NCBI RefSeq assembly: GCF_001652585.1
Contig: NZ_LWLG01000004.1
Location: 30,001-62,000, forward strand
Direction of reading: 5' to 3'
From: Thermosulfurimonas dismutans
GTDB lineage: Bacteria; Desulfobacterota; Thermodesulfobacteria; Thermodesulfobacteriales; Thermodesulfobacteriaceae
Length of the DNA: 32,000 bases
In this document: positions 1,380 through 32,000 of the stretch, one piece after another
How the letters are laid out: every line of letters begins with the position of its first letter
Position numbering within the stretch: the stretch's first letter is position 1
Translations under genes and position numbers: made by a program
Notes under the pieces: generated by a model
The model's database searches: none
Seen by the model: only the letters and a program-made list of their open reading frames with translations
What the model was told of the DNA's origin: nothing

Positions 1380-1408
1380 TTGCCAAGTTAACTCCCTGGC
1401 ATTAAAAT
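1380..1408 (+). promoter_or_regulatory. Candidate sigma-70-type promoter for tRNA-Arg (and possibly queF)
   Basis: TTGCCA (1380-1385), a 17-nt spacer, then TAAAAT (1403-1408). The predicted TSS is about 1415, 4-5 nt before the mature tRNA 5' end at 1420. Confidence 0.4.
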
Positions 1409-1419
1409 CACAAGCAAGC

Positions 1420-1496
1420 GCGCCCGTAGCTCAATCGGATAGAGCATTGGACTACGAATCCAAAGGTTGGAGGTTCGAGTCCTCCCGGGCGCGCCA
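1420..1496 (+). tRNA. tRNA-Arg (anticodon ACG), with encoded CCA
   Basis: Hand-folded cloverleaf. The acceptor stem is GCGCCCG/CGGGCGC and the D arm is GCTC-AATCGGATA-GAGC. The anticodon stem is TTGGA/TCCAA with loop CTACGAA (anticodon ACG). The T arm is GGAGG-TTCGAGT-CCTCC, followed by discriminator G and CCA. Confidence 0.95.
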
Positions 1497-1506
1497 TCTA
1501 ACTTTT

Positions 1507-1908
1507 ATGGCTGAGGAAAAGAGATACGGAGAGCGGGCTATTGAAGAGGCCGAGCTTGAGGCCTGGCCCAATCCCTATCCCGACCGAGACTATCGTATAG
1601 ACATCACCTTCCCGGAGTTCACCTGTCTGTGTCCCCGTTCGGGCTATCCGGACTTTGCTACCATTAAAATTTCTTATCTCCCGCACAAAAAGATCGTGGA
1701 ACTACGCTCTCTGAAACTCTGGCTTAACAAATTCCGTGGGCGCTATATCTCGCACGAAGCCGCTACCAACGAGATTTTTGACGCCCTCTGGAAACTCCTT
1801 GAGCCCAGGGAGCTTAAGGTGGTGGGGGACTTCAACCCCCGGGGAAATGTGCACACCGTGATCACCGTGGAACGGCGTCAGGGAAGTTCCGGCAGTCCCA
1901 CGGCGTAA
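1507..1908 (+). CDS. queF: NADPH-dependent 7-cyano-7-deazaguanine (preQ0) reductase, unimodular type
   Basis: [23 protein letters not shown] (catalytic Cys region) and the QueF motif ELRSLKLWL. The ORF-track start at 1447 is a TTG inside the tRNA, so the first ATG at 1507 is used. Confidence 0.9.
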
Positions 1909-6549: not shown

Positions 6550-6924
6550 TTAAAGAGGCTCAATGCGAATGAGGTGGGCGCCTTTTACTTCTTTAAGCTT
6601 AGAGGGATCGTCAAGGATACGACCTACCAGGTTTACCTCGCTTGCCGGAACCGGATCCGGGCCGGTAGAAGCCGGGGTGGGACCGAAGAAGATGGCCAGG
6701 GCCTGACCTGGAGGCCAGTAGCCAATATCCCCTACCTTCACCTTTACGGTATAGGTCTCATCCGGTTCGCAGCTTACCGGTATCCGGAAGTAAAACTCAT
6801 CCCCCCATTCGCTTGGCTCGGCTTCAATAGGTAGAGCCTCATAGAGCCTACGGGCACAATCGGTATCGAAGAGCTCGGCTCGAAGCTCTAGATTCTCAAT
6901 CCTTATTCGGATAGGGTAAGGCAT
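6550..6924 (-). CDS. Cyclophilin-like superfamily protein (TM1367-like)
   Basis: The 124-aa sequence LELRAELFDTDCARRLYEALPIEAEPSEWGDEFYF...GDIGYWPPGQALAIFFGP matches my memory of the TM1367/cyclophilin-like family. The ATG at 6924 is preceded by GAGGAGGT at 5 nt. The track start at 6927 is a TTG. Confidence 0.7.
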   Translation of the reverse strand: MPYPIRIRIENLELRAELFDTDCARRLYEALPIEAEPSEWGDEFYFRIPVSCEPDETYTVKVKVGDIGYWPPGQALAIFFGPTPASTGPDPVPASEVNLVGRILDDPSKLKEVKGAHLIRIEPL

Positions 6925-8038
6925 CAAGGACCTCCTCGCATAGTTCAGAGACCGGTCGGTCTCCGGAAAGTCTTAGGTAATTGAATCGCGGCAGGATCTC
7001 AAAATAGAGTTCCTTTATGGCCGAAAGCCTTTCTCTGGTTTCGTAAAGCTCGTGGGGTTCACCCCGATCTTTTATGCGTTCTAACGCCAAGTCTTCGGAA
7101 ACATCTATAAATACCACCAGATCTGGTACCGGGGCCACGGTTTCATTTTTACGGAGCAGTTCTTCAACATCGAGGCCCTCACTCCCTTGATAGGCCAGGG
7201 TAGAAGGATAATAACGATCACAGATGACAATTTTGCCGGCAAGCAAAGCCGGCACTAAGATCTTTTCGGCGTGTTCCCGACGGTCCCGCAGGAATAGCTC
7301 AGCATAGGCCTGGGGGGAAAGCGGGGTACGCTTAGCTAGGTGTTCCCGGATTTTCTCCCCCCATTCTCCCCGGGTGGGCTCCTGGGTAAAAATCGCGGGA
7401 ATCCCCCTAGATTTGAGCTCCTGATACACCTCCCTAGCCAGGGTACTTTTCCCAGAGCCGTCAAGGCCTTCGAAGACGATTAGCCGTCCAGGTCGCTCAA
7501 ACTCCACAAGAATCCTTGTTACTAGGAAATCCCGATTATCCGGCGTGATTTCGCAAAAAATAGGCTCCTTTAAACTCAGGATCTCCTCAAGAAAGGGCAC
7601 CTTACCGTAGCCCACGGAAGCCAGAAGTGGCTCTGGTCCTGAAAGAAGCTTCCGCATACGCTCGCGAAAGGCCTCGGAGAAGATTTCCATCTTTCCGATT
7701 TCGTCCACGATGAAGACTGGAGTGGCGCCCGAAGAGCTATCCAGCTCAAGGGAGGAAAGGGCCAATTTTTCGAAGGTCTCAAGGAAGACCTTGTATTTAC
7801 CCACTTGAGGCCAACCTCGGCCCCTTTTGGCCAGCCAGGCCTCTCGCCCGTCGAGAGTATAGATCTTGAACCCCACACGCCGGCCACCCTCCCGGACCTC
7901 ACGGGTTACGAATCCCTTTTTGGGCCCGGCAAGCCTTTCGGCCACCCGTTCTATGAGGGTGGTCTTGCCTGAACCAGGCAACCCATGAACGAGAACCTTC
8001 CTGCGACCGTGGGCCGGGATCTTTATTTTGTTTTCCAT
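6896..8038 (-). CDS. tmk: Fusion protein: N-terminal THEP1-like nucleoside-triphosphatase domain plus C-terminal thymidylate (dTMP) kinase
   Basis: The N-terminal half has Walker A (GLPGSGKTT) and Walker B (FIVDEIGKME), as in THEP1/NTPase_1. The C-terminal half has the Tmk P-loop (FEGLDGSGKST), the DRY motif (CDRYYPSTLAYQG) and a LID-like region. It is one uninterrupted 380-aa ORF. Confidence 0.8.
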   Translation of the reverse strand: MENKIKIPAHGRRKVLVHGLPGSGKTTLIERVAERLAGPKKGFVTREVREGGRRVGFKIYTLDGREAWLAKRGRGWPQVGKYKVFLETFEKLALSSLELDSSSGATPVFIVDEIGKMEIFSEAFRERMRKLLSGPEPLLASVGYGKVPFLEEILSLKEPIFCEITPDNRDFLVTRILVEFERPGRLIVFEGLDGSGKSTLAREVYQELKSRGIPAIFTQEPTRGEWGEKIREHLAKRTPLSPQAYAELFLRDRREHAEKILVPALLAGKIVICDRYYPSTLAYQGSEGLDVEELLRKNETVAPVPDLVVFIDVSEDLALERIKDRGEPHELYETRERLSAIKELYFEILPRFNYLRLSGDRPVSELCEEVLDALPYPNKD

Positions 8039-13856: not shown

Positions 13857-16310
13857 ATGTCGGTATATAACCTAGATTTCTTATTTAAGCCCAAAAGGAT
13901 CGCAATTTTTGACGTCAAACCCGAGGAATCCTCACTAGGCTCACAAATCTTCAAAAATCTAATCTTACAGGGCTTCAAAGGCGGAGTTTATCCCATAAGT
14001 GAGCAAGAAGAGTCCATCTTTGGCATAGAACCCTACCCTGATTTGGCCAGTCTTCCGAGGCCCGTAGACCTAGCCATTCTTGCAGGGGAGCCCGAAAATT
14101 GGTGGTCACAATTAAAGGCCTGTGCGGCCAATAATGTCAAAGCCGTCGTCATTTTAGGGCTAGACTTTTCTGCTCGGACCGAAAATCCCTCAGCTTTTAT
14201 GGAAAAAATAGCCCAGTTTGCCCATGAAAGAAAAATTCGAGTTTTAGGCCCCAATACTTTAGGTTTTATCTGCCCCAGACTCAGGCTGAACGCCAGCTTG
14301 TTTCCTGGAAGTCTAACCCCTGGGAACCTGGCCTTCCTTTCAGATAGCGCTACTTTGGCTTACGCCATCTTGGACTGGGCCGAAGAAAAGAAGGTAGGAT
14401 TCAGTCTCTTTGCTTCGCTGGGAGAGAAAGCGGATGTAGATCTTTCGGATCTGATCGACTATCTAACTTTAGACCCTTACACCAAGGCTATCGTAGCTTA
14501 TATAAAAAACTTAAAAAGCGGCCGAAAATTTATAAGGGCCGCTCGGGCCTTTGCTCGGAACAAACCCATTGTCGTAGTAAAAGGGAAAAAACTGGGCTCT
14601 TCCCAAAATGCAGAAGAGACTTTGTCCCTTCTGGCCCAGGAAAATCTAGTCTATGACGCGGCCTTCAAAAGGGCGGGCGTAGTTCAAGTTGAAGAAATCT
14701 TAGAGCTCTTTTATCTGGCCGAGAGTCTTTCCAAACAACCCCGGCCCAAAGGCCCGCGGCTAGTCATAATAAGTAATGCCGGTGGTCCGGCCATGATCGC
14801 CGCTGAATACTTGCAACGTCTAGGGGGTACCTTAGCCAGGTTATCTCCTGAAACCACTAAAACTTTGCATGAACTATTGGGCCGTGAAATTCAAAACCCC
14901 ATTGACTTATTGTCTTCGGCCCCTCCTCACCTCTTTCGAGAAACCCTGAAAACTTGTTTAAAAGATAGCGAAGTAGATGGCGCTCTAGCAATTTTTACTC
15001 CCAGCTTAGAAGCCCCGGTAGAAGATTTTGCTTGGTCTATCGTAAGGGCCCACAAAGAAATACATTGGAAACCCGTCTTAGCCAGTCTTATGGGAGAAAA
15101 TAGGGTCTTGGAGGGTAGGCGAATCTTGGCCAAAGAAGGCATACCCAACTTTGTTAGTCCCACAGAAGCCGTCAAGAGCTTTGTTTATATGTATCGTTAC
15201 GATCACAATCTCCGTTTAATATCAGAGACTCCGGGGACTATATTAGAAGACTTTTCCCCTGACAAAACCTTGGTTAATAGCATTATTGAGAAGGCTACTA
15301 AGGAGAATCGCCTAATCTTAACCTTTGAGGAAGCGGCATCTATTTTACAAGCCTACGGCATAATTGGAAGATATAACAATTTATCGGATATACCCGTCTC
15401 TTTCTTTCTAGGCACTACTCGAGACCCCTCCTTTGGAGCTACCATCCTTTTTGGATTGGGGGGCTTTCTTTTGGAGCCGGAGAGAGATTATGCTATTGGC
15501 CTTCCGCCCTTAAATCAAACCCTAGCCCGAAGACTTCTTGAGGAAACCAAAATATACTGGCATCTAAAAAAGAACCTAAAGGTTCCCCTCTCTTTTCTGG
15601 AGGAACTACTAGTCCGCTTTTCTCATTTAATTGTAGACTTTCCAGAAATTAAGGAAGTATTTATTCCGGCCCTAGAAATATCACGCGATGAGATAAAAGC
15701 TCCGAAAGCGGAAATCCTTCTAGACGAAATTGCATTCAAACGAACCGACTTCAAAAAAGGCTATTTTTGCCCTACTCACTTAGCCATTTGTCCCTATCCT
15801 TCTCATTTCATTTTTGAAGCCTCTTTAAAGGATGGGACTCCAATCTTTATACGCCCTATTAAACCCGAAGATGAACCTCTTATGGCGGAGCTCTTTTATA
15901 CTCTTTCGGAAGAAACTATAAGGTTCCGTTTTCACCAGATCAAAAAGAGTATTTCTCATGAGGAACTAGTCCGATACTGCCAAATCGATTACGATCGCGA
16001 AATGGCCCTGGTAGCCGTCCAAAAAGAAAATGGCCGAGAGAAAATAATAGGCGTAGTGAGGCTCAACAAATATCCTGACGAAGAAACAGCTGAAATGGCC
16101 GTAGTGGTAGGAGATCCGTGGCAGGGCAAAGGCCTAGGCAAGATCCTTTCTGAAAAAATGCTTTCGGTGGCCAGAGATATGTACTTGAAACGCATTCGTA
16201 TGCACATTTTGAAAGAAAATGAAAAAATGCTCACCCTAGCCCAAAAGTTAGGTTTCAAACCTGTAGATTTAGAAGAAGACATAGTTCGAGTAGAAAAAAT
16301 CCTAAATTAA
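13857..16310 (+). CDS. Pat-type protein acetyltransferase: an ADP-forming acetyl-CoA synthetase-like (CoA-binding/ATP-grasp) region fused to a C-terminal GNAT domain
   Basis: 817 aa. The N-terminus has CoA-binding and succinyl-CoA-ligase-like segments (KRIAIFDV..., VLGPNTLGF). The C-terminal GNAT has an acetyl-CoA motif (VVVGDPWQGKGLGKIL). Confidence 0.82.
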   Translation: MSVYNLDFLFKPKRIAIFDVKPEESSLGSQIFKNLILQGFKGGVYPISEQEESIFGIEPYPDLASLPRPVDLAILAGEPENWWSQLKACAANNVKAVVILGLDFSARTENPSAFMEKIAQFAHERKIRVLGPNTLGFICPRLRLNASLFPGSLTPGNLAFLSDSATLAYAILDWAEEKKVGFSLFASLGEKADVDLSDLIDYLTLDPYTKAIVAYIKNLKSGRKFIRAARAFARNKPIVVVKGKKLGSSQNAEETLSLLAQENLVYDAAFKRAGVVQVEEILELFYLAESLSKQPRPKGPRLVIISNAGGPAMIAAEYLQRLGGTLARLSPETTKTLHELLGREIQNPIDLLSSAPPHLFRETLKTCLKDSEVDGALAIFTPSLEAPVEDFAWSIVRAHKEIHWKPVLASLMGENRVLEGRRILAKEGIPNFVSPTEAVKSFVYMYRYDHNLRLISETPGTILEDFSPDKTLVNSIIEKATKENRLILTFEEAASILQAYGIIGRYNNLSDIPVSFFLGTTRDPSFGATILFGLGGFLLEPERDYAIGLPPLNQTLARRLLEETKIYWHLKKNLKVPLSFLEELLVRFSHLIVDFPEIKEVFIPALEISRDEIKAPKAEILLDEIAFKRTDFKKGYFCPTHLAICPYPSHFIFEASLKDGTPIFIRPIKPEDEPLMAELFYTLSEETIRFRFHQIKKSISHEELVRYCQIDYDREMALVAVQKENGREKIIGVVRLNKYPDEETAEMAVVVGDPWQGKGLGKILSEKMLSVARDMYLKRIRMHILKENEKMLTLAQKLGFKPVDLEEDIVRVEKILN

Positions 16311-18140: not shown

Positions 18141-19307
18141 TTACATTTCGAGAACCAGTTTATTAGTATCCTCATTCCAGTCAATAACGATGTACCAAAC
18201 AATGACCGCCAAAGCGATCAAAAACAGCGTTCCAGCATATCCCAAGTATTCAGGCATAAAGATAGCCTTACCCAGATAACCACTTTCAATGACCTCATAC
18301 TCCGCAAAAAGATGTCTTACCAGAGAGTTGGTTAAAGCGAAAAAGATGACCACCACCACCAGCTTGACCTGCCCTTCCGCCACTCGCCAGAGGCTTCCAG
18401 AACCACATCCACCAGCCACCACCATAGCGGCCCCGAAAATAAAACCTCCCAAGAGGGCCCCAATGCCGAAGGTGGGGGTAACATAAGCCATCTCAGGCCT
18501 AAACTCATTGTATTTCAGGATGGCTATCCCGATGGCCGAAAGAATAAGGCTTATGGCCAAAGCCTTACCCATTACGGCCTCACCAGTCATAAAGGGCTCG
18601 CGCAAGGCGTTCACCATACAAAACCGACTCCGATGCATGGTATAACCAATGGCCGCCGTAAGGATCAAGCAACCTCCAAGAGTAGCTCCGTCATCAGCTT
18701 CGCTTCCAAAATAGGCCTTAGTGGCCAGTAGCAAGCCAATAAGGGCTATCACTCCCAATATGGGGTTTATCTTTCGGAAGCTGATTTCAAAGCCACCGGC
18801 ACTCGGAAAATGCTCAAGCTCCCAATAGAGATACTTCACTCCCAAAATGACCCCAAAAATGAGTCCGATCATCATGACCAGGCCATTGGCCGCCAGATTG
18901 TTCACCGCCATATAAAAACCACCTACATTACATCCCATGGCCAAGGCCGAACCAATCCCCATGAGGATACCGGCCACTATCGCCTTTATGAACTCAATCT
19001 TGGGAGGCACACGGATACCGAATTCTCGGGCCAAAGCAGCCGAAATAAAGGCCCCCCAAACCAAGCCTATGTCCAGAATAGAGGAAGAAAACCAAAGAGG
19101 GTGAGGAGGCTCGTCCTCATAAAGCCCCAGGCCGTAAAAGAACCAGTCCGCCCAGTTTCTCAACCCCCCCACGATACCCCAAGGACGATACCAAGTCTCA
19201 AGGAGGACCACAAAAAAAGCCAAAAGGATGCCACCCATAAGAGGAGACCAATTCTTAGCACAAAGCCCTTCATACACACCTTTGATCTTTTCCTTTAATA
19301 CACTCAT
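18141..19307 (-). CDS. YeeE/YedE-family (TsuA-like) sulfur-compound/thiosulfate transporter
   Basis: A 388-aa polytopic membrane protein with the three conserved Cys motifs of the family (AMGCNVGG, RSRFCM, AGGCGSGS). Confidence 0.88.
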   Translation of the reverse strand: MSVLKEKIKGVYEGLCAKNWSPLMGGILLAFFVVLLETWYRPWGIVGGLRNWADWFFYGLGLYEDEPPHPLWFSSSILDIGLVWGAFISAALAREFGIRVPPKIEFIKAIVAGILMGIGSALAMGCNVGGFYMAVNNLAANGLVMMIGLIFGVILGVKYLYWELEHFPSAGGFEISFRKINPILGVIALIGLLLATKAYFGSEADDGATLGGCLILTAAIGYTMHRSRFCMVNALREPFMTGEAVMGKALAISLILSAIGIAILKYNEFRPEMAYVTPTFGIGALLGGFIFGAAMVVAGGCGSGSLWRVAEGQVKLVVVVIFFALTNSLVRHLFAEYEVIESGYLGKAIFMPEYLGYAGTLFLIALAVIVWYIVIDWNEDTNKLVLEM

Positions 19308-23811: not shown

Positions 23812-24231
23812 TTAGTAGTAGTTTCCGGTCTTGGTGCCCTCACAGACCTCTTCAATACGGTCGGTCACCAATTGTCCGTTTCTCCAAATACGCTTGTGGA
23901 CCTTGTGGCAGTAGGTCTTCTGGTTGTATTCCATGGGCGTAGCCTCCACCACTGCGTTTTCACTCTGATAAACTACGGTCTGCTGTTTGGCGACCGCCTC
24001 CTGAGTGGCCCGGGTGCTTATGGCCGTAAGTCCACCTCCAAGAACCGCCCCTGCGGTAGCCCCAATCACGGCCCCCCGCCAAGGATTGTGATGATCAAGA
24101 AGGGCTCCGGAAAAGGCTCCCACAGCCGCTCCAAGCCCCGCTCCCTGATAAGGGGCACTTTGAGTAGTGGTACATGCTGTAACCAAAAGTCCGACCATCA
24201 AAAGACCCCAAAACCACCTCTGAATCCTCAT
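23812..24231 (-). CDS. Lipoprotein with a glycine-zipper (Rick_17kDa_Anti/YMGG-like) domain
   Basis: A lipobox LLVTA|C follows a signal sequence, then glycine zippers GAGLGAAVGAFSGALL and GAVIGATAGAVLGGGL. I prefer the ATG at 24231 (GGAGG 8 nt upstream). The track start at 24240 is a GTG. Confidence 0.75.
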   Translation of the reverse strand: MRIQRWFWGLLMVGLLVTACTTTQSAPYQGAGLGAAVGAFSGALLDHHNPWRGAVIGATAGAVLGGGLTAISTRATQEAVAKQQTVVYQSENAVVEATPMEYNQKTYCHKVHKRIWRNGQLVTDRIEEVCEGTKTGNYY

Positions 24232-24271
24232 CCTCCTCACCTCCTTCGTTTTGTCCTTTGTTTTGGTTCAA

Positions 24272-24491: not shown

Positions 24492-24872
24492 ATGAAAATG
24501 CGTATCTTTCTCCTAATAGGGTTCTTGTTTCTGGGAGCCTCCCAAACCGCTTTCGCCTGGGGAGGATGCTCACGAGGAGAGAAGTGGCGAAATGAGGTGA
24601 AAGTTATTGGTCGAATAATAAAAATTCGCCCACCACTGGCGGTATTGGAAACCCCTCAGGGCGAAACTTTATATATCCGTCTGGGGCCTTATCAGTTCTG
24701 GAAGGCCATGGGCTATAGCCTGAGAAAAGGCGAAAAAGTTATTATCAGAGGCTATCGGTGTGGAGATATCATTTTCCCGAAAGTCATTCGTCATCGAGGA
24801 GGGAAAATAAGACTTCGTAATGAAAAAGGGATTCCCCTCTGGAGGAAATATCGTTCCAGACCAGGGTGGTAG
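24492..24872 (+). CDS. Small secreted (periplasmic) hypothetical protein, probably beta-rich
   Basis: A signal peptide (MKMRIFLLIGFLFLGASQTAFA|WGGC). The mature sequence reads ...VIGRIIKIRPPLAVLETPQGETLYIRLGPYQFW...GEKVIIRGY...IRLRNEKGIPLW. The ideal SD GGAGG lies 5 nt upstream. Confidence 0.7.
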   Translation: MKMRIFLLIGFLFLGASQTAFAWGGCSRGEKWRNEVKVIGRIIKIRPPLAVLETPQGETLYIRLGPYQFWKAMGYSLRKGEKVIIRGYRCGDIIFPKVIRHRGGKIRLRNEKGIPLWRKYRSRPGW

Positions 24873-26106
24873 TAAAGGCTTGCGTTCAAAGGTTTTCTTT
24901 TTGGCAGGTTTTGTGGTCCTTTTTCTGAGCTTCATGGCCGAAATATGGTTGTTTCACAATACCCTTTCCGACCATCAGCGTTTCGAAGCCCAAAGGGCAC
25001 TCAACTTAATAGAAGGACGGCTCGCGGGTTACCTTGAATTGCTGGCAGTCCTTTCAGAGGTGCCACCCTACTTAAAGAACCTTGCCTGGTTGACCGATGA
25101 ACTCCAAGGAGATCCTGGTCTTACCGGAGTCCTGGTAAAAGAAGGGAAGCGCGTACTTTTGAACACCTTCCCCGAAGATATTCGGCTCGACAAGGAAACC
25201 TTTTTGGCCTGTCGGAAGGGATACGAATACCAAAGGGCTTTTTTTCTTTGTCGAAATTCCGAGCTTGCCCCTGGAAAGAACTTTTTTCTTTTGGTAGCCT
25301 TTGATACCCATTTCAAGGCCCTTCTTTTCAGAGAGGCTTTAGTCTATGGAGGTCTAGTTTTTTTAGGGGGAAGCCTCCTTCTTCTTCTAGCGGCCCTTTA
25401 CACCCAGAAACTTGAGAAAGAACGGGAAAACCTTAGAGAAAGGCTCATTTCCTCCGAAAGACTGGCTACCATGGGAAGACTTTCAGCCATGATTGCCCAC
25501 GAGATAAGGAATCCCTTGAACACCCTCTTTATGGGGATCCAATACCTAAAGGAGGCGGAAAACTCCGAAGAGATCCTTCCTCTCCTTGAAGATGAAATCA
25601 GACGACTTTCCGAACTTACCGGGGAACTTCTATCGCTTTCCCGAGGATTTGAGGTCAAAATCGAAAAATTTGAACTCTCGGAACTCCTTTCTCAGATTGA
25701 AGTCCGCTTCCGCCCCAAGATAGAAGCCAAAGGACTTGCTTTTCGGATTTCGGCCCCGGAAAAACTTGTCCTAACCGCCGATCGGCGGTGGCTTTATAGG
25801 GCGCTTGCTAACCTCCTTACCAATGCCATCGAACACGCTCCTGTCGGGGAATCGGTAGAAGTCTCGATCTCGGCTCAAAAAAGGCAAATCGTTTTCCAGG
25901 TTTGCAATAGTGGTTCTACCGTGCCGAAAGCCTTAAAAGGAAAGATATTTGAACCTTTTTTCACCACCCGGGAAGGAGGTTTCGGCCTGGGGCTTTACAT
26001 CGTAAAACAGGTGGCGGAGGCCCACGGCGGACGAGTCGGCTTGAAGACCTTTCCGGAAAAAGTATGCTTTGAGATGGAAATCCCCGGAGAGTCAACAAGT
26101 CTATGA
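24820..26106 (+). CDS. Sensor histidine kinase (2 TM segments, a periplasmic loop of about 135 aa, HisKA + HATPase_c, no obvious HAMP)
   Basis: The H-box is SAMIAHEIRNPLN, the N-box is LLTNAIEHAP and the G-box is GFGLGLYIV. The start is uncertain. The ATG at 24820 overlaps the upstream ORF by 53 nt and lacks a well-spaced SD. The TTG at 24880 (MRSKVFFLAGF...) is an alternative. Confidence 0.85.
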   Translation: MKKGFPSGGNIVPDQGGSKGLRSKVFFLAGFVVLFLSFMAEIWLFHNTLSDHQRFEAQRALNLIEGRLAGYLELLAVLSEVPPYLKNLAWLTDELQGDPGLTGVLVKEGKRVLLNTFPEDIRLDKETFLACRKGYEYQRAFFLCRNSELAPGKNFFLLVAFDTHFKALLFREALVYGGLVFLGGSLLLLLAALYTQKLEKERENLRERLISSERLATMGRLSAMIAHEIRNPLNTLFMGIQYLKEAENSEEILPLLEDEIRRLSELTGELLSLSRGFEVKIEKFELSELLSQIEVRFRPKIEAKGLAFRISAPEKLVLTADRRWLYRALANLLTNAIEHAPVGESVEVSISAQKRQIVFQVCNSGSTVPKALKGKIFEPFFTTREGGFGLGLYIVKQVAEAHGGRVGLKTFPEKVCFEMEIPGESTSL

Positions 26107-27467
26107 AAATGGCCTATCGTGTGCTTCTGGTGGAAGACGAAGAAGCCCAGCGCAAGATCTTGGGAGGCTATTTACAAAAAAGGGGCTACCAGGTGTCTGA
26201 AGCCGGAAGCGGCACAGAAGCCTTGAAGATTGTAGAGGAGAAAAAGCCGGAGATCGTTCTCCTCGACTGGCGGCTCCCAGATGATGATGGCCTGAACCTT
26301 ATCCCCAAACTCAAAGAACGCTCTCCCCTTTCGGCCATCATCATGCTAACGGCCTTTGCCACCGTAGAACGGGCGGTCTCGGCCATGAAACTCGGAGCCT
26401 ACCACTACCTCACCAAACCGGTAAACCTGGAGGAATTACTCCTCATTATGGAGCGAGCCCTTTCGGAACTAAAATTGAGGAAAGAAATAGAGGACCTCCG
26501 CCGGAAACTCGCCGAACTTCTACCTATAGAAATCAGAGATTTTGTAGCCGAAAGTCATAAAATGAAAGAAATCTTGGCCTTGGTCTCCAAAGTGGCTCCC
26601 ACCGAGGCCACCGTACTCATCACCGGAGAACCTGGAACCGGAAAGGAAGTCCTGGCTCATCTCATTCACCATTTGAGTAGCCGGAAAGAGGGCCCCTTCG
26701 TTCAAGTAAACTGTGCCGCCATTCCGGAGGGTTTATTAGAATCCGAGCTCTTTGGGCATGAGAAGGGGGCCTTTACCGGAGCCGACCGTGCTAAACCGGG
26801 CCTTTTCGAGGAAGCTCATAGGGGAACCATTTTCCTTGACGAGGTTGGGGAACTGCCACTGCCCTTGCAGGCCAAGCTCCTTCGAGTGCTACAGGACGGG
26901 ACCTTCCGGCGAATAGGGGATACCAAGGAAATCAAAGTGGATGCCCGGATTATCGCAGCCACCAATCGAGATCTCGAAGAGATGGTCAAAAAGGGCGCTT
27001 TCCGGGAAGATCTTTTCTGGCGGTTAAACGTCTTCAGCCTCCGACTCCCACCGTTAAAGGAAAGGCGAGAGGACATTGTACCTTTGGCAAAGTATTTTTT
27101 GCAGAAATTTTCTGAAAAATACGGCAAGGCCGTCCAAGGATTTAGCCGTGAGGTCCTAGAGTTCTTGCTTACCTATCACTTTCCCGGAAACGTTAGAGAA
27201 CTCAAAAACCTCATCGAACGCGCCGTTATCCTAGTCGAAGAGGAAACTATAACCATCAAGGATCTGGCCTTAATGCCAGAAGGTCCTGAAGACTTAACCC
27301 AAAAACTTTTAACACTCCCTCTAACGGAAGCGGTTGAGACTTTGGAAAAGATCCGCATAAGGGAGGCCCTAGAAAAAGCAGGAGGAGTAAAGACCAGAGC
27401 CGCTGAATTTTTAGGTATTTCCGAAAGGGTTCTAAGGTACAAACTCGAAAAATATAAATTCAATTAA
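26103..27467 (+). CDS. Sigma-54-dependent response regulator (NtrC/ZraR/AtoC family: REC + AAA+ + Fis-type HTH)
   Basis: REC is VLLVEDEE...LLDWRLPDDDG, Walker A is GEPGTGKE, the sigma-54 contact loop is GAFTGA (EKGAFTGAD), and the C-terminal HTH is TRAAEFLGISERVLRYKLEKY. The ATG overlaps the kinase stop (ATGA). Confidence 0.92.
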   Translation: MKMAYRVLLVEDEEAQRKILGGYLQKRGYQVSEAGSGTEALKIVEEKKPEIVLLDWRLPDDDGLNLIPKLKERSPLSAIIMLTAFATVERAVSAMKLGAYHYLTKPVNLEELLLIMERALSELKLRKEIEDLRRKLAELLPIEIRDFVAESHKMKEILALVSKVAPTEATVLITGEPGTGKEVLAHLIHHLSSRKEGPFVQVNCAAIPEGLLESELFGHEKGAFTGADRAKPGLFEEAHRGTIFLDEVGELPLPLQAKLLRVLQDGTFRRIGDTKEIKVDARIIAATNRDLEEMVKKGAFREDLFWRLNVFSLRLPPLKERREDIVPLAKYFLQKFSEKYGKAVQGFSREVLEFLLTYHFPGNVRELKNLIERAVILVEEETITIKDLALMPEGPEDLTQKLLTLPLTEAVETLEKIRIREALEKAGGVKTRAAEFLGISERVLRYKLEKYKFN

Positions 27468-28018
27468 TGCTTTCGTGGAACCGGTTGCTTTCCAAATTTT
27501 TCCCATAGTAACCTAAAAGTAGGCGTAAAATCCTGCGGCTTTTTAGCCAGCCATTCCTCAAGTTCCGCTGGGTCCACGAAGCGTCCTTCTTCGATCTCTA
27601 GGGGATTGGGCTTGGGACTTTTGCGGGTGGTACCCTTAAAAAGGACCACAAACTCGTAACCGGTCTCTGGGGATGCCGGGAGACGTCCCACTTCACTTAA
27701 ACCACATAAAAGCCCTAGTTCTTCCTTAAGTTCACGACGAGCAGCTACCGGATAGGGCTCTCCGGGAGAAACATGGCCTGAGGCCGAAGAATCCCATTTT
27801 CCAGGATTTTCATCCTTTAAGCGAGATCTTTTTTGCAAATATATCTTCCCTTCGGGGTTGAATAGAAAGACATGCACAGCTTTATGAAAGAGTTTTTGTT
27901 CGTGAATCTGGCCGCGCGGGAGAAGACCTACTACATTACCATCCTGATCTGTGATTTCTAGCATCTCAAGGAGCATTCCCTCGGGACTATCCTTTTTTTT
28001 ACGACCTCTTTTTCCCAT
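27464..28018 (-). CDS. Nudix hydrolase
   Basis: A perfect Nudix box, GHVSPGEPYPVAARRELKEELGL (GX5EX7REUXEEXGU). I prefer the ATG at 28018 (the track start at 28024 is a GTG). Its stop overlaps the convergent activator stop (TTAA). Confidence 0.8.
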   Translation of the reverse strand: MGKRGRKKKDSPEGMLLEMLEITDQDGNVVGLLPRGQIHEQKLFHKAVHVFLFNPEGKIYLQKRSRLKDENPGKWDSSASGHVSPGEPYPVAARRELKEELGLLCGLSEVGRLPASPETGYEFVVLFKGTTRKSPKPNPLEIEEGRFVDPAELEEWLAKKPQDFTPTFRLLWEKFGKQPVPRKH

Positions 28019-28769
28019 TTTCACCCTCTAGCATGTGATTTATCATACTTGCAAAATAGGCCGCTCCGACACCGTTGTCAATATTTACCACAGTAACTCC
28101 CATAGCACAGGTGTTTAGCATAGCGAGAAGCGGGGCCAGTCCCCCAAAATTGGCTCCATATCCCACGCTGGTGGGTACGGCAATGACCGGTCGATCCACC
28201 AGCCCTGCCACTACGCTGGGTAGGGCCCCTTCCATGCCAGCCACTACAATAATGGCTCTAGCCGCTCGCAATTTCTCGAGTTCAGGGAAAAGCCGGTGTA
28301 TACCGGCCACTCCTACATCATAAATGGCCTCTACCCGGTTGCCGAAGTACTCGGCAGCTATCCTAGCCTCTTCAGCTACCGGGAGATCCGCGGTTCCAGC
28401 CGAGACCACTGCCACCTGCCCCACCAGACTTCCCTCGGGTTTTACGCCAAGAAGCCTTGCCCGTTCGTAGTATTCAAGCTGCGGGAACCTGTTCTTTAAT
28501 CTTACAGCCATTTTTTCCGATATACGGGTAACGAGAAAAGGGCTTTCCTTTTCGAGAAAGGACTCCACAATTTTTTGAAGTTCCTCTTCGTTTTTTCCAG
28601 GACCGTATATGATCTCTGGAAAATGTTTCCGGAGTCCGCGATGATGGTCAAGACGAACGGTCGTTAGATCCTCATAAGGTAGATCTCGGAGCCTTTCATA
28701 GGCCTCTTCAACAGAAAGCTCTCCCCTTGCAAGAGCCGAAAGAAGATTTTTGAGGGTTTTAGGCGTCAT
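27999..28769 (-). CDS. larB: LarB-type nickel-pincer cofactor biosynthesis protein (PurE/AIR-carboxylase-like NaAD carboxylase/hydrolase)
   Basis: The C-terminal PurE-like domain reads VAVVSAGTADLPVAEEA...VVAGMEGALPSVVAGLVDRPVIAVPTSVGYG, and there is an N-terminal LarB-specific helical extension. The ATG overlaps the upstream stop (ATGA). Confidence 0.82.
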   Translation of the reverse strand: MTPKTLKNLLSALARGELSVEEAYERLRDLPYEDLTTVRLDHHRGLRKHFPEIIYGPGKNEEELQKIVESFLEKESPFLVTRISEKMAVRLKNRFPQLEYYERARLLGVKPEGSLVGQVAVVSAGTADLPVAEEARIAAEYFGNRVEAIYDVGVAGIHRLFPELEKLRAARAIIVVAGMEGALPSVVAGLVDRPVIAVPTSVGYGANFGGLAPLLAMLNTCAMGVTVVNIDNGVGAAYFASMINHMLEGENGKKRS

Positions 28770-29359
28770 TGATTTAGCGCTTTTGCAAAGATGTTTTTGA
28801 GGTATTCAAGCTGCCTTTCATATTGAGGATCGAGCTGGTCCCGCACCTTGCGCCATTCTTCCTGAAATTGAGGCTGCATCTCTACGTCCACCTGGACCTG
28901 AACACCCATCTGATTACGTAGAGCCTCTTCCACTCCGGCCAACTGAGATTCAAATTGCTGTTTTAATTGTTCATAAAGGGCCTTCCGGTGCTGGAGATAC
29001 TGACTGAGGAGCCTCTCTATTTCCTGAGTCAACTGTTTCACATCCGGGAAAGCTGAAAAGACGATCTCTAGCCCCAAAAGGGCTTTTTTGGCCCCTTCCA
29101 AGGCATATTCATCCCTCGGAAGGTTGATATTTCTAAGTAAGGTAAATATTATGCCTTTAATAAAAGGCCCCTTCTCAGAAGGGTTCAGGCGAGCAATCTC
29201 GGCTGCAAGATCAATCTCCTCTTCGCTGTTCAAGAACTTAGCCGCTAGCCTTTGACCTTTTTCTTTTAGCTCCTCAAGCTTTAATTCCTCTCGGGAAGCC
29301 CTTCCGATCTTTTCCGCTTTTTCCAGGGCAATCTCAAGGGCACTTTTTATCTCCCCCAT
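28766..29359 (-). CDS. Hypothetical all-helical protein, first gene of the larB operon
   Basis: 197 aa, E/K/L/Q-rich and probably coiled-coil or helical-bundle. I recognise no motif. It is translationally coupled to larB. Confidence 0.55.
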   Translation of the reverse strand: MGEIKSALEIALEKAEKIGRASREELKLEELKEKGQRLAAKFLNSEEEIDLAAEIARLNPSEKGPFIKGIIFTLLRNINLPRDEYALEGAKKALLGLEIVFSAFPDVKQLTQEIERLLSQYLQHRKALYEQLKQQFESQLAGVEEALRNQMGVQVQVDVEMQPQFQEEWRKVRDQLDPQYERQLEYLKNIFAKALNQ

Positions 29360-29467
29360 ATCTCATTCCTCCCTAGCAAATAAATTTCCAAACTAAATCT
29401 AAACGTTCCCGAGCAAAAATCCACTCCCCTCTTTCGAAACCGATGCTTCCCTGTTAAAAACAAAGAT

Positions 29468-30253
29468 ATGGAGGAATGGTTATCCATTGATGAAATTCTA
29501 AAAAAACTTTCTTTCGAAGGTTATAAATTCACTAAAAGGACCTTCCTCTACTATGTCCAGCTTGGCCTTCTCCCCAAAGGAAAGCGGGTAGGCCAGAAAA
29601 AGGGGGGCGTAAAATTTTACTATCCCTTCTGGGCTATAGAGCGTTTAAAAGAAATTCTCCACTTAAAACAACAGGGTTTAAAATTAAAAGAAATCCAAAA
29701 AAGGCTCTCTACTCCTTCCGCCAAAAAAAAAGAAAAGAAGGCTCCCCCCCAATTTTATGACTGGGAAAAATTAAAAAGATGCACTGGTTGTGGAATCTGC
29801 GGGGGGATATGTCCCGTTTATGAAGAAATGGAGGACCCTCCCTGGCGTTTAATTCAAGTCCTAGCCCACCGAAAAGACGCAAAGCTCACAAGTAATACTC
29901 CCTGGATATGCATAGGTTGTTATCTCTGTGAAGAGCGATGCCCGGAGGAAATTCCTATTGTGGAATTTTTGAGGTTTTTGAAAAGAGAGGCCCTATCAAA
30001 GGGACATATACAACTATCTCAAGCTCCAGAATGGAGCCAGCTCTTCTGGGAACTCGTCGAAGAAAGGGGCCGCTCTTTTGATTTTGGAGCCGTGCACGCC
30101 TACCAGATAAAAATAACCGGCTCGGGCAATGACCGACGTATTATCCTGCGGCTTCCTTGGGAAAAAGGCGAAAAAGAGGTTTCCGCTCCGGAGCCCATTA
30201 AAGACCTTCAGGGATTTAAAAAGATGCTGGCTAAAGCCAAGGAGTTTTGTTAG
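29468..30253 (+). CDS. hdrC: HdrC-like 2x[4Fe-4S] subunit with an N-terminal MerR-like helix-turn-helix extension
   Basis: Residues about 5-80 (LSIDEILKKL...FTKRTFLYYVQLGLLPKGKR...GVKFYYPFWAIERLKEILHLKQQGLKLKEIQKRL) follow the MerR HTH and wing pattern. A K-rich linker comes next, then CTGCGICGGICP and CIGCYLCEERCP as in HdrC. Confidence 0.72.
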   Translation: MEEWLSIDEILKKLSFEGYKFTKRTFLYYVQLGLLPKGKRVGQKKGGVKFYYPFWAIERLKEILHLKQQGLKLKEIQKRLSTPSAKKKEKKAPPQFYDWEKLKRCTGCGICGGICPVYEEMEDPPWRLIQVLAHRKDAKLTSNTPWICIGCYLCEERCPEEIPIVEFLRFLKREALSKGHIQLSQAPEWSQLFWELVEERGRSFDFGAVHAYQIKITGSGNDRRIILRLPWEKGEKEVSAPEPIKDLQGFKKMLAKAKEFC

Positions 30254-31045
30254 ATGCGAGCGTTCTATTACCCCGGATGTTCTTCGGAACATCTGGCCAG
30301 AGATCTCCATCTATCTGTAGAAACTCTATTTTCGGTCCTGGGAATTGAGATCGAGAACCTCGAAGACTGGAATTGTTGTGGAGCCCGCGAAATCCACGAC
30401 TATCAAGATCTTTTGGGATTGTCTCTGGCGGCGAGAAATTTGGCTTTGGCCGAGAAAGGAGACCTTTTAGTTACGGCTTGTAGCCTCTGTTTCTTTAATT
30501 TAAAACGGGCTGAAAAAATCCTCAGAGAAGATCAAGATCTCTTGCAAAAGATTAATACAATTCTCGGAGAAGCGGATCTCTCTTATCACCCTGGAAAGGT
30601 CCACATTTTGCATTTACTAGAGTTCCTCTCCATTAAGGAAAATTTCTCGCGACTCCTCAAACAAATTAAAGGCGAAGACAAAACTTCTGTGGTTCCCTAT
30701 TACGGTTGTTTTCTTTCGCGACCGTTCCCTTTTGACCTTTCCACCATGGAAAAAATTCTTCGAATATTAGGTTATGAAGTAAAGCCTTTCACACTCAAAA
30801 GTCATTGTTGTGGAGGACACCTTCCCCGAACAAACTCTCCCACAATACAGGAATTATGTGGTCGCATTTTACTGGAAGCCGAGATGCGGGGAGCGGACTT
30901 TATCGCTGTGACCTGTCCGGTATGCAAGCTCAACTTAGAAATTTATGGCTTCCGTGAAGGGCTCCCTCGGATAATCTATTTCACCCAGCTCATAGGATTA
31001 AGACTAGGGCTTCCTAATTCTCTACTTGGTCTTCCTGGAGAATGA
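30254..31045 (+). CDS. hdrB: HdrB-like subunit (two CCG domains)
   Basis: The two CCG motifs are YYPGC...WNCCGA...ACSLC and YYGC...SHCCGGH...TCPVC. The start directly abuts the hdrC stop. Confidence 0.85.
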   Translation: MRAFYYPGCSSEHLARDLHLSVETLFSVLGIEIENLEDWNCCGAREIHDYQDLLGLSLAARNLALAEKGDLLVTACSLCFFNLKRAEKILREDQDLLQKINTILGEADLSYHPGKVHILHLLEFLSIKENFSRLLKQIKGEDKTSVVPYYGCFLSRPFPFDLSTMEKILRILGYEVKPFTLKSHCCGGHLPRTNSPTIQELCGRILLEAEMRGADFIAVTCPVCKLNLEIYGFREGLPRIIYFTQLIGLRLGLPNSLLGLPGE

Positions 31046-31046
31046 A

Positions 31047-32000
31047 ATGAAAGTGTCGATATTCCTTTGTGAATGTGGCGGCAATATAAGCGATCGTATC
31101 AATCTCAAAAAGTTGAGTACTAAGCTACAAGAGGATGTAAACCTGGACGTCCATATTCATCCCTTTTTATGTTCTCCCAAAGGACAGGTTGCACTGGTCC
31201 AAAAACTAAAAAAAGGTACCAAAGTCCTTATTGGAGCCTGCTCGCCCCACCTCCACGGAGAAACCTTTAAGACCCTACTGGCGGAAATTGGCATTCATAC
31301 CTTCCAAATAGTAGCCATACGAGAGGAAGCTGCCTGGACCGACGGGAACACCCCAGAAGAAAAGGCCTTACGCCTCATAAAAGGCGCGCTTAAGGCCTTA
31401 AAAGGTATGGTGCCTCCCCAGATTCAAGAATCCTTAATTGTTCCCAATCTAATGGTTATTGGAGGAGGCATTGCAGGCATCGTAGCGGCTATCAAAGCCG
31501 CCCAAGAGGGAATTCCCGTGTACCTAATCGAAAAAGAACCCTTTGTCGGGGGCAAAGCCGTCTTTCTTGATCGCTTATACCCCCGTTTTGAATGCGCCTC
31601 TTGTGTAATCTCCCCTAAACTCTCGACCTTACTCCACGAGAAACGTGTCCAGATCATTACCCAGGCTCGCATAGTCAAAATCACAGGACTTCCTGGGAAA
31701 TATGAAGTGGAATTAGAGATTCGTCCTCGATACGTAGATCTTCAGAAGTGCAACGGTTGCGGCAAATGCTTGGAAGCCTGTCCCCTTAACCCTCCAGCCA
31801 TCGCCTTCCACAATCCACATCCCGTCCCTAGAGTACCGGTCATAAATCCCTTCGCTTGCTTGCGTCTCAAAGGCCAAACTTGCCGAAGGTGTCAAAGGGC
31901 TTGTCCTCAAAAAGCTATCAATTTTAAGGCCACCTTTCAGAGAACAAATCTACAGGTAGGGGGTTTTATCGTAGCCACTGGCTTTAGACCTTATCCGGTC
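31047..32000 (+). CDS. hdrA: HdrA-like FAD/Fe-S oxidoreductase subunit. The C-terminus is cut off by the window edge.
   Basis: My own translation from ATG 31047 gives 318 codons with no stop. It begins MKVSIFLCECGGNISDRINL...IGACSPHLHGETF, an HdrA N-terminal Cys domain. The FAD fold is MVIGGGIAGIVAAIKAAQEG, and the ferredoxin motifs are CNGCGKCLEACP and CRRCQRACP. It is absent from the ORF track because it is open-ended. Confidence 0.8.
   Translation, partial: MKVSIFLCECGGNISDRINLKKLSTKLQEDVNLDVHIHPFLCSPKGQVALVQKLKKGTKVLIGACSPHLHGETFKTLLAEIGIHTFQIVAIREEAAWTDGNTPEEKALRLIKGALKALKGMVPPQIQESLIVPNLMVIGGGIAGIVAAIKAAQEGIPVYLIEKEPFVGGKAVFLDRLYPRFECASCVISPKLSTLLHEKRVQIITQARIVKITGLPGKYEVELEIRPRYVDLQKCNGCGKCLEACPLNPPAIAFHNPHPVPRVPVINPFACLRLKGQTCRRCQRACPQKAINFKATFQRTNLQVGGFIVATGFRPYPV

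Follow-up and report, generated by a model that had tools for sequence, protein, structure and literature searches.

An HdrC-like subunit with an N-terminal MerR/GlnR-type DNA-binding domain in Thermosulfurimonas dismutans, and a conserved promoter box that accompanies the fusion

The window analysed here is a 32,000-nt stretch of the Thermosulfurimonas dismutans genome. Read directly from it, an open reading frame at 29468..30253 on the plus strand begins with ATG and encodes 261 aa in three parts. Residues 1-81 (29468..29710, +) form a MerR/GlnR-type winged helix-turn-helix (wHTH), assigned from Pfam family PF13411, an AF2 model, Foldseek and conservation. Residues 82-98 (29711..29761, +) form a Lys/Pro-rich flexible linker, marked by its pLDDT and low identity and containing A9 and C7 homopolymer runs. 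Residues 99-261, with the stop codon (29762..30253, +), form an HdrC-like ferredoxin body assigned from Fer4_8/Fer4_17, TIGR03290 and the solved HdrC 5odc_C. The protein is a real and rare fusion of a MerR-type DNA-binding domain and an HdrC-like body in one polypeptide.

An hdrB-like gene of 263 aa (30254..31045, +) follows with a gap of 0 nt. Its product matched the CCG domain PF02754 in two stretches (E=1.5e-23) and TIGR03288 at E=1.3e-25, the latter below the cut-off of that model. After a further 1 nt comes the 5' part of an hdrA-like gene (31047..32000, +), whose translation begins MKVSIFLCECGGNI and whose frame stays open to the window end. The two CCG stretches of hdrB and the gaps of 0-1 nt are as an earlier note on this DNA had described them. 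At orthologous loci the hdrA position is occupied by a 620-627-aa FAD/Fer4 protein, followed by mvhD (FlpD), mvhG and mvhA; the fusion has the same partners as the HdrC of other bacterial hdrCBA-mvhDGA operons, namely HdrB with CCG domains, HdrA and MvhDGA. The hdrCBA-mvhDGA genes of T. dismutans are TDIS_0910-0915, and the extra domain goes unmentioned in the genome paper (PMC4911364). Upstream, a divergent DUF6657 gene (28766..29359, minus strand; PF20362, E=1.2e-6) is the first of a conserved DUF6657-AIRC(LarB-like)-NUDIX operon and shares a 108-bp intergenic region with hdrC. This synteny next to the fusion gene was kept in three other loci (L061, L064 and L065).

The identity of the N-terminal domain was established by profile and by fold. 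With the whole protein as query, PF13411 (MerR_1) matched residues 21-81 at E=9.6e-8, and residues 1-90 alone scored 35.6 bits (E=1e-8) against a curated cut-off of 21.6 bits, confirming the MerR HTH that the earlier note had read there. A family profile compared with solved structures matched Bacillus megaterium MerR (4ua1_A) over residues 19-92 at E=5e-5, and the NCBIfam TnrA model reached only E=0.034 on the fusion protein. The AF2 model of the domain alone (pLDDT 90.7, pTM 0.76) showed the topology b1-a1-a2-b2-b3-a3-a4, with alpha4 at residues 73-80. Foldseek gave a probability of 1.00 for MerR-family domains; the top match was the GlnR-DNA complex 4r4e_A (TM 0.68/0.69, rmsd 2.6 A), followed by the HiNmlR-, BmrR- and SoxR-DNA complexes, so that the nearest structures were all DNA-bound MerR/GlnR-type domains.

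The wHTH was also the most conserved segment of the protein, with a mean pairwise identity of 0.63 compared to 0.17 in the linker. Codon differences over residues 22-53 comprised 585 synonymous and 162 non-synonymous changes. The wHTH is a real, translated and selected domain, and the claim that the first 80 or so residues follow the MerR HTH/wing pattern was borne out by profile, fold and strong purifying selection alike. The domain is basic, with a pI of about 10 and a net charge of +10 in T. dismutans; for the 12 proteins that the first homologue search recovered from Thermodesulfobacteria, the charge was +7 to +12. Both clades that carry the fusion share an invariant recognition helix, RTF[LQ]YYVQ, and an invariant wing. 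Neither R24 nor Y28 varied, and they align with the two residues, Arg and Tyr, through which GlnR reads T-G-T; from this alignment we infer that they would make the same base contacts.

Two dimerisation elements of related regulators were absent from the AF2 model. The coiled-coil helix alpha5 was missing, alpha4 running instead into the disordered Pro/Lys-rich linker, and in place of the alpha1' helix of TnrA/GlnR only a 3-residue strand (E4-6) preceded alpha1. The manner, or even the fact, of wHTH dimerisation on a palindrome is therefore in doubt. A homologue search with the wHTH alone returned only fragments of fusion proteins and one distant Myxococcota protein with a C-terminal helix; the fusion thus has this wHTH subtype almost to itself.

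In the C-terminal body, Fer4_8 and Fer4_17 matched residues 102-162 above their cut-offs. Both CX2CX2CX3CP motifs that the earlier note had listed were present: CTGCGICGGICP (C105-P116, 29780-29815) and CIGCYLCEERCP (C148-P159, 29909-29944). All eight Cys and both Pro of these [4Fe-4S] motifs were invariant in 13 sequences, and the same two motifs occur in the HdrC of MvhAGD-HdrABC (PDB 5ODC chain C), which the family profile matched over residues 99-184 at E=4e-17. The HdrC equivalog model TIGR03290 gave 54 bits (E=1.6e-14), below its cut-off of 160 bits; by this measure the body is HdrC-like rather than a CoB-CoM HdrC equivalog, and it differs from HdrC further in its extra N-terminal domain of about 80 residues and the linker. 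Bacterial HdrC-like proteins of around 190 aa share the C-terminal region, and the plain proteins, of 177-200 aa, aligned to profile positions 93-259. HdrC relays electrons from HdrA to the active site of HdrB (PMC13518236).

The fusion architecture was found in at least 20 loci of two clades, a recurrence that, judged from the sequences compared, is far more than chance would produce. Its distribution was confined to Thermodesulfobacteria of the Thermosulfurimonas/Thermodesulfatator type and to a second, distant clade (36-39% identity) with Nitrospirota among its members. Every close relative of the HdrC body also carried the wHTH. The lysine-rich linker SAKKKEKKAPP, also described earlier, is present in T. 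dismutans; residues 84-94 had pLDDT below 50, and second-clade linkers were much longer and of variable length. Since the linker is variable and disordered, allosteric passing of the redox state of the clusters through it is unlikely. Annotation of the fusion proteins was uneven, one being named 'MerR family transcriptional regulator' and another '4Fe-4S dicluster domain-containing protein', and such inconsistent names could mislead metabolic reconstructions.

In the shared intergenic region, an 11-bp box, TGTTAAAAACA (29452..29462, +), ends 5 nt before the hdrC ATG and is a candidate operator with arms TGTT/AACA. The box was invariant, 5-7 nt before ATG, in 9 of 10 Thermodesulfobacteria loci, while other intergenic DNA diverged. 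It contains an extended -10-like TGtTAAAAA. A -35-like hexamer, TTCGAA (29433..29438, +), can be read 16 nt upstream of TAAAAA, and aligned relatives had TT-starting hexamers (TTGGCA, TTGAAA, TTCAAG, TTGGAA, TTCAAA) 16-17 nt upstream of it. A strict consensus scan returned no promoter, and the -35-like assignment is accordingly putative. A classical MerR promoter with its 19-20-bp spacer did not fit the spacing of 16-17 bp in the compared loci. Given this spacing and the missing coiled-coil helix, 'MerR-like regulator' is true of the fold and false of the mechanism. A sigma-54 promoter driven by the neighbouring NtrC-type regulator was also discarded for hdrC, as no GG dinucleotide was seen on the plus strand of 29360-29467; the best sigma-54-like sites lay at 24272 and 24454, adjoining the regulator's own operon. 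Among inverted and direct repeats, the intergenic region held only short ones, most simply explained as facing ribosome-binding sites.

The same 11-mer also marked the promoter of the adjacent operon for the group-1 [NiFe] hydrogenase (hyn), in 4 of the 4 loci that reach hyn, and this invariant box at hdrC and hyn promoters is new here. All 13 exact copies in 132 kb were at hdrC or hyn promoters. Within the 32-kb window there was no second copy with one mismatch or none, and matches with two mismatches were at chance level. The hyn promoters are of the TTGACT-17/18-TACAAT type; in three of the four the box begins 5-6 nt past the -10, and in L065 it begins 14 nt past it. At hdrC the box holds the -10-like TAAAAA, whereas at hyn it lies downstream of the -10, and this difference in position relative to the core promoter favours an operator over a simple promoter element. 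With a -10-like hexamer and an upstream TG inside the box, its conservation could partly reflect promoter function alone.

In the second clade, all 6 strict TGTT-N3-AACA matches in the loci were at the fusion gene, lying at or flanking it as TGTTATAAACA, as TGTTAATAACG together with TGTTAATAACA, and as TGTTTTTAACA, the last being the same 11-mer as in T. dismutans, reversed. The box was seen there at +15 inside the coding region as well as in reversed orientation, and in L069 it lay about 90 nt upstream of the ATG. Three fusion loci (L006, L071 and L072) had near-matches only. The fusion locus L067 had no box, and its fusion gene is translationally coupled to the upstream gene, which accounts for this. 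Close plain-HdrC relatives were sought for a tighter co-occurrence test and none shared words with the body, so 55 distant plain-hdrC loci served as the control. No TGTT-N3-AACA was present within 400 nt upstream of these 55 genes; across 548 kb of plain-hdrC loci the motif was 7.5-fold rarer, with 8 matches, of which 0/8 fell within 400 nt upstream of hdrC. The box therefore co-occurs with the fusion and not with the plain genes of this control, and its presence in both clades lends indirect support to an autoregulatory role.

Several known regulators resemble the fusion in part. The canonical MerR activators (MerR, CueR, BmrR and SoxR) share its wHTH fold and Pfam family; they differ in having the alpha5 coiled coil and a promoter with a 19-20-bp spacer, both missing here, and in operators of more than 22 bp compared to the putative 11-bp operator, while the 'effector domain' of the fusion is an entire enzyme subunit. 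SoxR, with its [2Fe-2S] sensor, sets a precedent for linking a MerR-type domain to Fe-S redox sensing. Fused DNA-binding domains are also found in the trigger enzymes PutA (RHH plus flavoenzyme), BirA and NadR. Like these, the fusion is a catalytic or redox protein with a DNA-binding domain of its own, and it has a candidate operator at its own promoter; unlike them, it has a different DNA-binding fold, and the partner of that fold belongs, as a single subunit, to a multi-subunit complex that bifurcates electrons.

A further parallel is with TnrA/GlnR, MerR-related wHTH regulators under glutamine synthetase control, whose Arg26/28 and Tyr30/32 read T-G-T (PMC4335299). As in the fusion, these proteins lack a coiled coil, act at ordinarily spaced promoters and physically couple a metabolic enzyme to a DNA-binding domain, and GlnR on DNA was the best structural match. 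The half-site is the same, TGTNA in TnrA/GlnR and TGTTA here. The spacing is not: the TnrA operator is TGTNA-N7-TNACA, whereas the arms of the candidate operator TGTTA-N1-(T/A)AACA are separated by 1 bp. TnrA/GlnR further differ in possessing the alpha1' N-terminal helix, and in the fusion the enzyme partner is covalent and a redox subunit. HdrR of Methanosarcina barkeri, likewise a winged-HTH protein, acts on an hdr operon promoter, which it binds and regulates (PMC11218639); it is a separate archaeal activator, neither fused to an Hdr subunit nor MerR-type.

A conserved DNA-binding domain and a palindromic box accompanying the gene in two phyla suggest that the enzyme subunit probably regulates its own operon too. 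We put the chances at about even that the HdrC-like subunit is an enzyme-tethered autoregulator of its own operon, comparable to PutA or to GlnR/glutamine synthetase. The C-terminal body, with its two [4Fe-4S] clusters, would then provide electron transfer within a cytoplasmic HdrCBA-MvhDGA hydrogen:heterodisulfide oxidoreductase, as one of its subunits, while the wHTH on its flexible tether would bind the palindrome TGTTA-N-TAACA sequence-specifically (here at 29452-29462), the protein itself presumably being the reader of the box. At hdrC the box overlaps the likely -10 region and the start site of a probably leaderless transcript, and at the group-1 [NiFe] hydrogenase promoter it would overlap the start site. 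With the box over these elements, occupancy should repress both the hdr and the hydrogenase operons, resulting in a tethered autoregulation of hydrogen metabolism. More speculatively, the signal may lie in whether the Hdr complex is assembled or in its redox state. A fuller version is less likely and offered tentatively: the HdrC subunit of the electron-bifurcating Hdr-Mvh complex may be the transcription factor for the hdrCBA-mvhDGA and periplasmic group-1 hydrogenase operons, its coiled-coil-less MerR/GlnR-type domain reading TGTTA-N-TAACA in an unprecedented geometry, so that the promoters learn directly of the complex's assembly, its clusters or its redox state. If so, it would be the first trigger enzyme of flavin-based electron bifurcation.

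The absence of a coiled coil and of an alpha1' dimerisation element, together with the ordinary promoter spacing of 16-17 bp, would also fit a MerR-like domain recruited as a structural or protein-protein docking module that does not bind DNA, its ligand being, for instance, a partner enzyme, a chaperone or a DsrC-like substrate. The box would then be a strong extended -10 or the site of another regulator; it contains TG-n-TAAAAA, TATAAA or TAATAA, all -10-like, and the L067 fusion gene does without it. We consider such a role rather unlikely. The domain is strongly basic, its nearest structural neighbours were all bound to DNA and its base-reading Arg and Tyr are invariant. A -10 alone fails to explain a box that lies past the canonical hyn -10, at +15 in a coding region or reversed in the second clade, and the box goes with the fusion rather than with plain hdrC. 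The reader of the box could also be some other, unlinked regulator; in Thermococcales, GTTn3AAC serves as the motif of SurR.

The high positive charge of the domain and its apparent monomeric state, with no dimerisation element, are in keeping with non-specific DNA binding that would anchor the Hdr-Mvh complex to the nucleoid, the box belonging to an unrelated hydrogen-responsive regulator. This is improbable: an invariant recognition helix and wing in two clades are more than non-specific binding needs, and the same box accompanies the fusion in both. Less probable again is control of translation through the box as a 5'-leader element (UGUUAAAAACA) near the hdrC and hynB start codons, bound by the domain or by another factor. 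In Thermodesulfobacteria the distance from the box to a start codon never exceeds about 20 nt, and hyn transcripts would have the box at their 5' end. At hdrC, however, the fixed distance of 16-17 nt to the -35-like hexamers puts the -10 within the box and transcription initiation at the ATG, which would leave the box untranscribed. A search for an RNA element at the hdrC leader gave no Rfam match and no significant fold (z = -0.32), the L069 box is far from its start codon, and to our knowledge MerR-type domains are not RNA binders.

That the gene is an artefact, whether two neighbours run together through misassembly or a frameshift error, or a plain HdrC made from a downstream start, is hardly credible despite the A9 run in its linker (from 29723), the split of L006 into 135-aa and 175-aa ORFs and a wHTH-only fragment of 113 aa (P0045), given that the unbroken ORF was conserved in 13 proteins of the first search and in further metagenome loci, that the A9 run is not conserved in relatives, and that no in-frame ATG, GTG or TTG occurs at residues 2-120. 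The internal start near residue 100 that the earlier note had raised was not found; the sole in-frame start codon in residues 2-125 is ATG121, past the first cluster motif. Genuinely split versions of the gene ('Rosetta stone') did not emerge either: L006 comes from a long-read MAG and is broken by one indel near the start of the linker, with the third frame reading on as fused linker, and the 70-aa ORF that precedes a plain hdrC in L068 bears no resemblance to MerR.

The presence of an HdrC-type Fe-S subunit with an N-terminal MerR-like domain at the head of hdrCBA, the central claim of the earlier note, is confirmed by profile, fold and gene order, and the survey of HdrC homologues limits the fusion to two clades. 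The literature was searched for MerR with HdrC, for fused HTH and Hdr and for the box sequence; no paper describing the fusion was found, in agreement with the note's view that it was not known to be described. Nor did the literature searched describe a regulator of hdrCBA-mvhDGA in bacteria that reduce or disproportionate sulfur compounds. For the regulation of electron-bifurcating Hdr/Mvh complexes in anaerobes, a DNA-binding domain within HdrC, with a precise candidate operator common to two hydrogenase-related operons, provides a directly testable hypothesis. If it is true, a redox Fe-S subunit would join the short list of trigger enzymes, and the coiled-coil-less MerR-type branch represented by TnrA/GlnR would be extended to a new operator geometry.

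The gene at 29468..30253 (+), first in hdrCBA(-mvhDGA), starts with ATG and encodes a 261-aa protein in which a MerR/GlnR-type winged helix-turn-helix (wHTH) is fused to an HdrC-like subunit. Pfam placed MerR_1 (PF13411) on residues 21-81 of the whole protein (E=9.6e-8); residues 1-90 alone scored 35.6 bits (E=1e-8) against a curated cut-off of 21.6, bearing out the ORF and MerR-type N-terminus that an earlier note had read from the sequence. Both CX2CX2CX3CP motifs and the Lys-rich linker were present as that note described, and 4Fe-4S dicluster domains covered residues 102-162 (Pfam). The NCBIfam HdrC equivalog TIGR03290 matched residues 103-183 (E=1.6e-14) at 54 bits, short of its cut-off of 160; the body is thus HdrC-like without being a CoB-CoM HdrC equivalog. 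The family profile matched the solved HdrC chain 5odc_C over residues 99-184 (E=4e-17) and the Bacillus MerR 4ua1_A over residues 19-92 (E=5e-5). Downstream, the proposed gaps of 0-1 nt held: hdrB (30254..31045, +), with its CCG domain in two stretches, abuts the fusion gene with zero gap, and an HdrA-like ORF runs from 31047 (+) past the window end.

In the full-length AlphaFold2 model, residues 1-80 had pLDDT 81-91; the wHTH modelled alone reached pLDDT 90.7 and pTM 0.76. The modelled topology was b1-a1-a2-b2-b3-a3-a4 followed by a disordered linker, with no long alpha5 helix after a4. The top Foldseek PDB match was DNA-bound GlnR (4r4e_A; TM 0.68/0.69, rmsd 2.6 A, 81 columns, probability 1.00), followed by HiNmlR-, BmrR- and SoxR-DNA complexes. 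In the Thermodesulfobacteria proteins the wHTH was strongly basic (pI ~10, net charge +7 to +12) and the HdrC body near neutral.

When 5.8 billion proteins were searched, 13 full-length relatives (36-77% identity) were recovered, all identical in architecture. Their public names conflict: the T. marina protein is called 'MerR family transcriptional regulator', that of Thermosulfurimonas sp. F29 '4Fe-4S dicluster domain-containing protein'. HMMER, run exhaustively against 1.84 billion cluster representatives, gave ~1000 HdrC-like proteins with E<=1e-10; when the best 150 of these were surveyed for the extension, the wHTH part was matched only in this cluster, a second cluster of 308 aa and a few fragments. 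All close relatives of the HdrC body carried the wHTH, and this wHTH subtype was almost unknown outside the fusion. Further loci, found by scanning genomes and metagenomes, belong to Thermosulfurimonas and Thermodesulfatator MAGs or to a second clade of greater diversity, in which a Nitrospirota MAG is the sole member with a taxonomic label. By eye, two other HdrC-like proteins carried different N-terminal domains, a response-regulator receiver (P0025, 347 aa) and a Lrp/AsnC RAM-like domain (P0039, 268 aa); fusions of HdrC with regulatory modules may be recurrent.

The wHTH was the most conserved alignment segment, with RRTFLYYVQLGLLPKG.R.GQ..GGV.F.YP nearly invariant. Mean pairwise identity was 0.63 in the wHTH, 0.54 in the Fe-S part, 0.50 in the C-terminal part and 0.17 in the linker, which in the second clade was far longer and variable in length. 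Codon differences across residues 22-53 in nine loci were synonymous in 585 cases and non-synonymous in 162, which shows that the wHTH region is translated and subject to purifying selection. An internal start yielding a plain HdrC was also considered, and no in-frame ATG, GTG or TTG occurred between residues 2 and 120. In L006, a Nitrospirota long-read MAG, one indel early in the linker (~6250-6366) splits the fusion into 135-aa and 175-aa ORFs. A genuine split gene was rejected, because the linker of the fused form resumes exactly in the third reading frame; L006 has either a sequencing error or a copy in decay. The window's own linker contains an A9 homopolymer (29723-29731) followed by a C7 run. 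A frameshift at A9 in either direction meets a stop within 8-13 codons; the product of slippage would then be a free wHTH of ~95-100 aa. Orthologues do not conserve the run, which is thus probably incidental and a likely source of sequencing errors.

Relatives shared an upstream layout of a histidine kinase, a sigma-54-type response regulator and a divergent DUF6657-AIRC-NUDIX operon, followed by merR-hdrC, hdrB, hdrA, mvhD, mvhG, mvhA and a group-1 [NiFe] hydrogenase operon (hyn) with hyp genes. The T. dismutans genome paper lists hdrCBA-mvhDGA as TDIS_0910-0915 and the adjacent periplasmic hydrogenase as TDIS_0916-0918, with no mention of the extra N-terminal domain (PMC4911364). In the window, the divergent operon comprises DUF6657 (28766..29359, -), LarB-like AIRC (27999..28769, -) and NUDIX (27464..28024, -) genes. 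Its synteny with the fusion gene was seen in the Thermosulfurimonas-type loci L061, L064 and L065, and L001 and L002 had ORFs matching in size and order. Two sigma-54 -24/-12-like sites, each with 1 mismatch and from a window total at chance level, were found at 24272-24287 (-, TGGCACGTCATTTGAT) and 24454-24469 (+, TGGCACGGGTTCTGCT). They point outwards between a 142-aa ORF (23812..24240, -) that synteny with L064 identifies as a glycine-zipper gene and the operon 24492..27467 (small ORF, histidine kinase, sigma-54 response regulator), and are probably targets of the adjacent regulator, not of hdr. Elsewhere the window holds an NTPase_1-thymidylate kinase fusion (6896..8038, -), a Pat-like CoA-ligase with GNAT acetyltransferase (13857..16310, +) and a YeeE/YedE-type sulfur transporter (18141..19307, -).

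Aligning the DNA upstream of the fusion start codon across relatives revealed an 11-mer box, TGTTAAAAACA, identical in nine Thermodesulfobacteria loci and ending 5-7 nt before the ATG; the surrounding intergenic DNA (~47 bp in L001) was divergent among loci. The window's copy, at 29452-29462 (+), is its sole match at up to 1 mismatch. TT-starting -35-like hexamers lay 16-17 nt upstream of a box-internal TAAAAA preceded by TG, and no Shine-Dalgarno was present between box and hdrC ATG. We infer an extended -10 promoter with transcription starting at or next to the ATG of a leaderless mRNA; a strict consensus scan found no promoter. Such a start would support 29468 as the true start.

Exact copies also occurred at the promoter of the hyn small-subunit gene in 4/4 relatives' loci reaching that gene (L001 10844-10854, L061 13962-13972, L064 16045-16055, L065 15539-15549); the window ends before hyn. 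There the box sits between a TTGACT-type promoter and the Shine-Dalgarno of this Tat-signal gene, directly downstream of mvhA. A canonical TTGACT-17/18-TACAAT-type promoter precedes it in L001, L061 and L064, the box beginning 5-6 nt past the -10 and so covering the start site; L065 has a weak candidate -10 (TAATTA), and its box begins 14 nt beyond that. All 13 exact copies in 132 kb of these loci were at hdrC or hyn sites, with 0 elsewhere. Within mvhA, 400-575 nt before the hyn box, a single homologous position carried TGTT-N3-AACA variants (L061 13442, L064 15484, L065 14964: TGTTTAGAACA, TGTTTAAAACA, TGTTTTAAACA; near-match TGATAAAAACA at L001 10449); either a third site or plain codon conservation could account for them.

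Although second-clade proteins share only 36-39% identity with the window's, TGT-N5-ACA boxes were found at the fusion gene there too. L069 carried TGTTATAAACA ~90 nt upstream of the ATG. L070 carried TGTTAATAACG over the -10 of a leaderless-type promoter (TTGACA-17-TAATAA-6-ATG) plus TGTTAATAACA at +15, the latter also at +15 in L066/L073 behind TTGACA-17-TATTAA-7-ATG. The box abutting the ATG in L075/L076, TGTTTTTAACA, is the Thermodesulfobacteria box in reverse complement. L006, L071 and L072 had near-matches only, those in L006 being degenerate (TGTTTAGAGCG, TGTTCATAGAA). L067 had no box; there translational coupling links the fusion gene to the gene before it, a different operon context (809..1186, 1186..1974), and that upstream gene has a DJC28_CD (DnaJ-C28-like) domain and is preceded by a TPR gene. 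The strict box occurred in 4/6 second-clade lineages against an expectation of ~0.004 per locus. Across fusion loci, TGTTNNNAACA had 22 copies in 200 kb (15 at the fusion gene 5' end, 4 at hyn promoters, 3 inside mvhA), compared with 8 in 548 kb of 55 plain-hdrC loci, 0 of these 8 within 400 nt upstream of hdrC. The counts include near-duplicates (L001/L002, L066/L073, L075/L076), so independent lineages are fewer than loci.

TnrA and GlnR are MerR-related wHTH proteins without a coiled coil, are governed by direct contact with glutamine synthetase, and bind TGTNA-N7-TNACA in promoters of normal spacing; Arg28/26 reads G4 and T5, and Tyr32/30 reads T3 (PMC4335299). In a HMMER alignment to GlnR, these base-reading residues corresponded to invariant R24 and Y28 of the fusion family, and the box half-site TGTTA fits TGTNA. 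However, the fusion wHTH lacks the alpha1' helix and its half-sites are 1 bp apart instead of 7, so the geometry must be new if two domains bind; alternatively, a monomer could read one arm and the A/T-rich centre through its basic wing. We infer with moderate confidence that the wHTH binds the candidate box TGTTA-N-TAACA. Lying across -10/+1 at hdrC and +1 at hyn, the box is placed such that a bound protein should repress both operons; on this positional argument the HdrC subunit would be an autoregulator of hydrogen metabolism. The DUF6657 operon shares a short intergenic region (47-160 bp) with the fusion gene, and a box-bound protein could thus affect it also. The input signal is a matter of speculation. 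A linker that is disordered and non-conserved speaks against rigid allosteric signalling from the clusters; control by HdrC abundance, assembly, cluster loading or stability, or sequestration of the tethered wHTH in the assembled complex, would be more plausible.

A wHTH serving as a docking or structural module, with the box a mere promoter element, is unlikely: it accounts for the missing dimerisation elements but fails to explain the basic wHTH surface, the invariant base-reading residues, and boxes at +15, past a separate -10, or reversed. Some other regulator might read the box, whose core equals the Thermococcales motif GTTn3AAC of SurR, a redox-switched archaeal regulator of hydrogenase and sulfur genes (PMC12162507); the folds are unrelated and the match is probably coincidence. 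Less likely than docking are non-specific nucleoid tethering by the wHTH, which seems improbable, an RNA-level role for the box, more improbable still, and an artefactual fusion, which can practically be set aside.

A literature search found no paper describing the MerR-HdrC fusion, in agreement with the earlier note, or the box. The only hdr regulator it turned up, HdrR of M. barkeri, is a separate protein, whereas here the regulator-type domain is fused to HdrC. The concept has precedents in enzymes with a fused DNA-binding domain, MerR-type domains with an Fe-S sensor, and coiled-coil-less MerR-like domains paired with an enzyme; PutA and GS-GlnR/TnrA are the best functional analogies. Fusion and box together offer a specific, testable way into how an electron-bifurcating complex is regulated.
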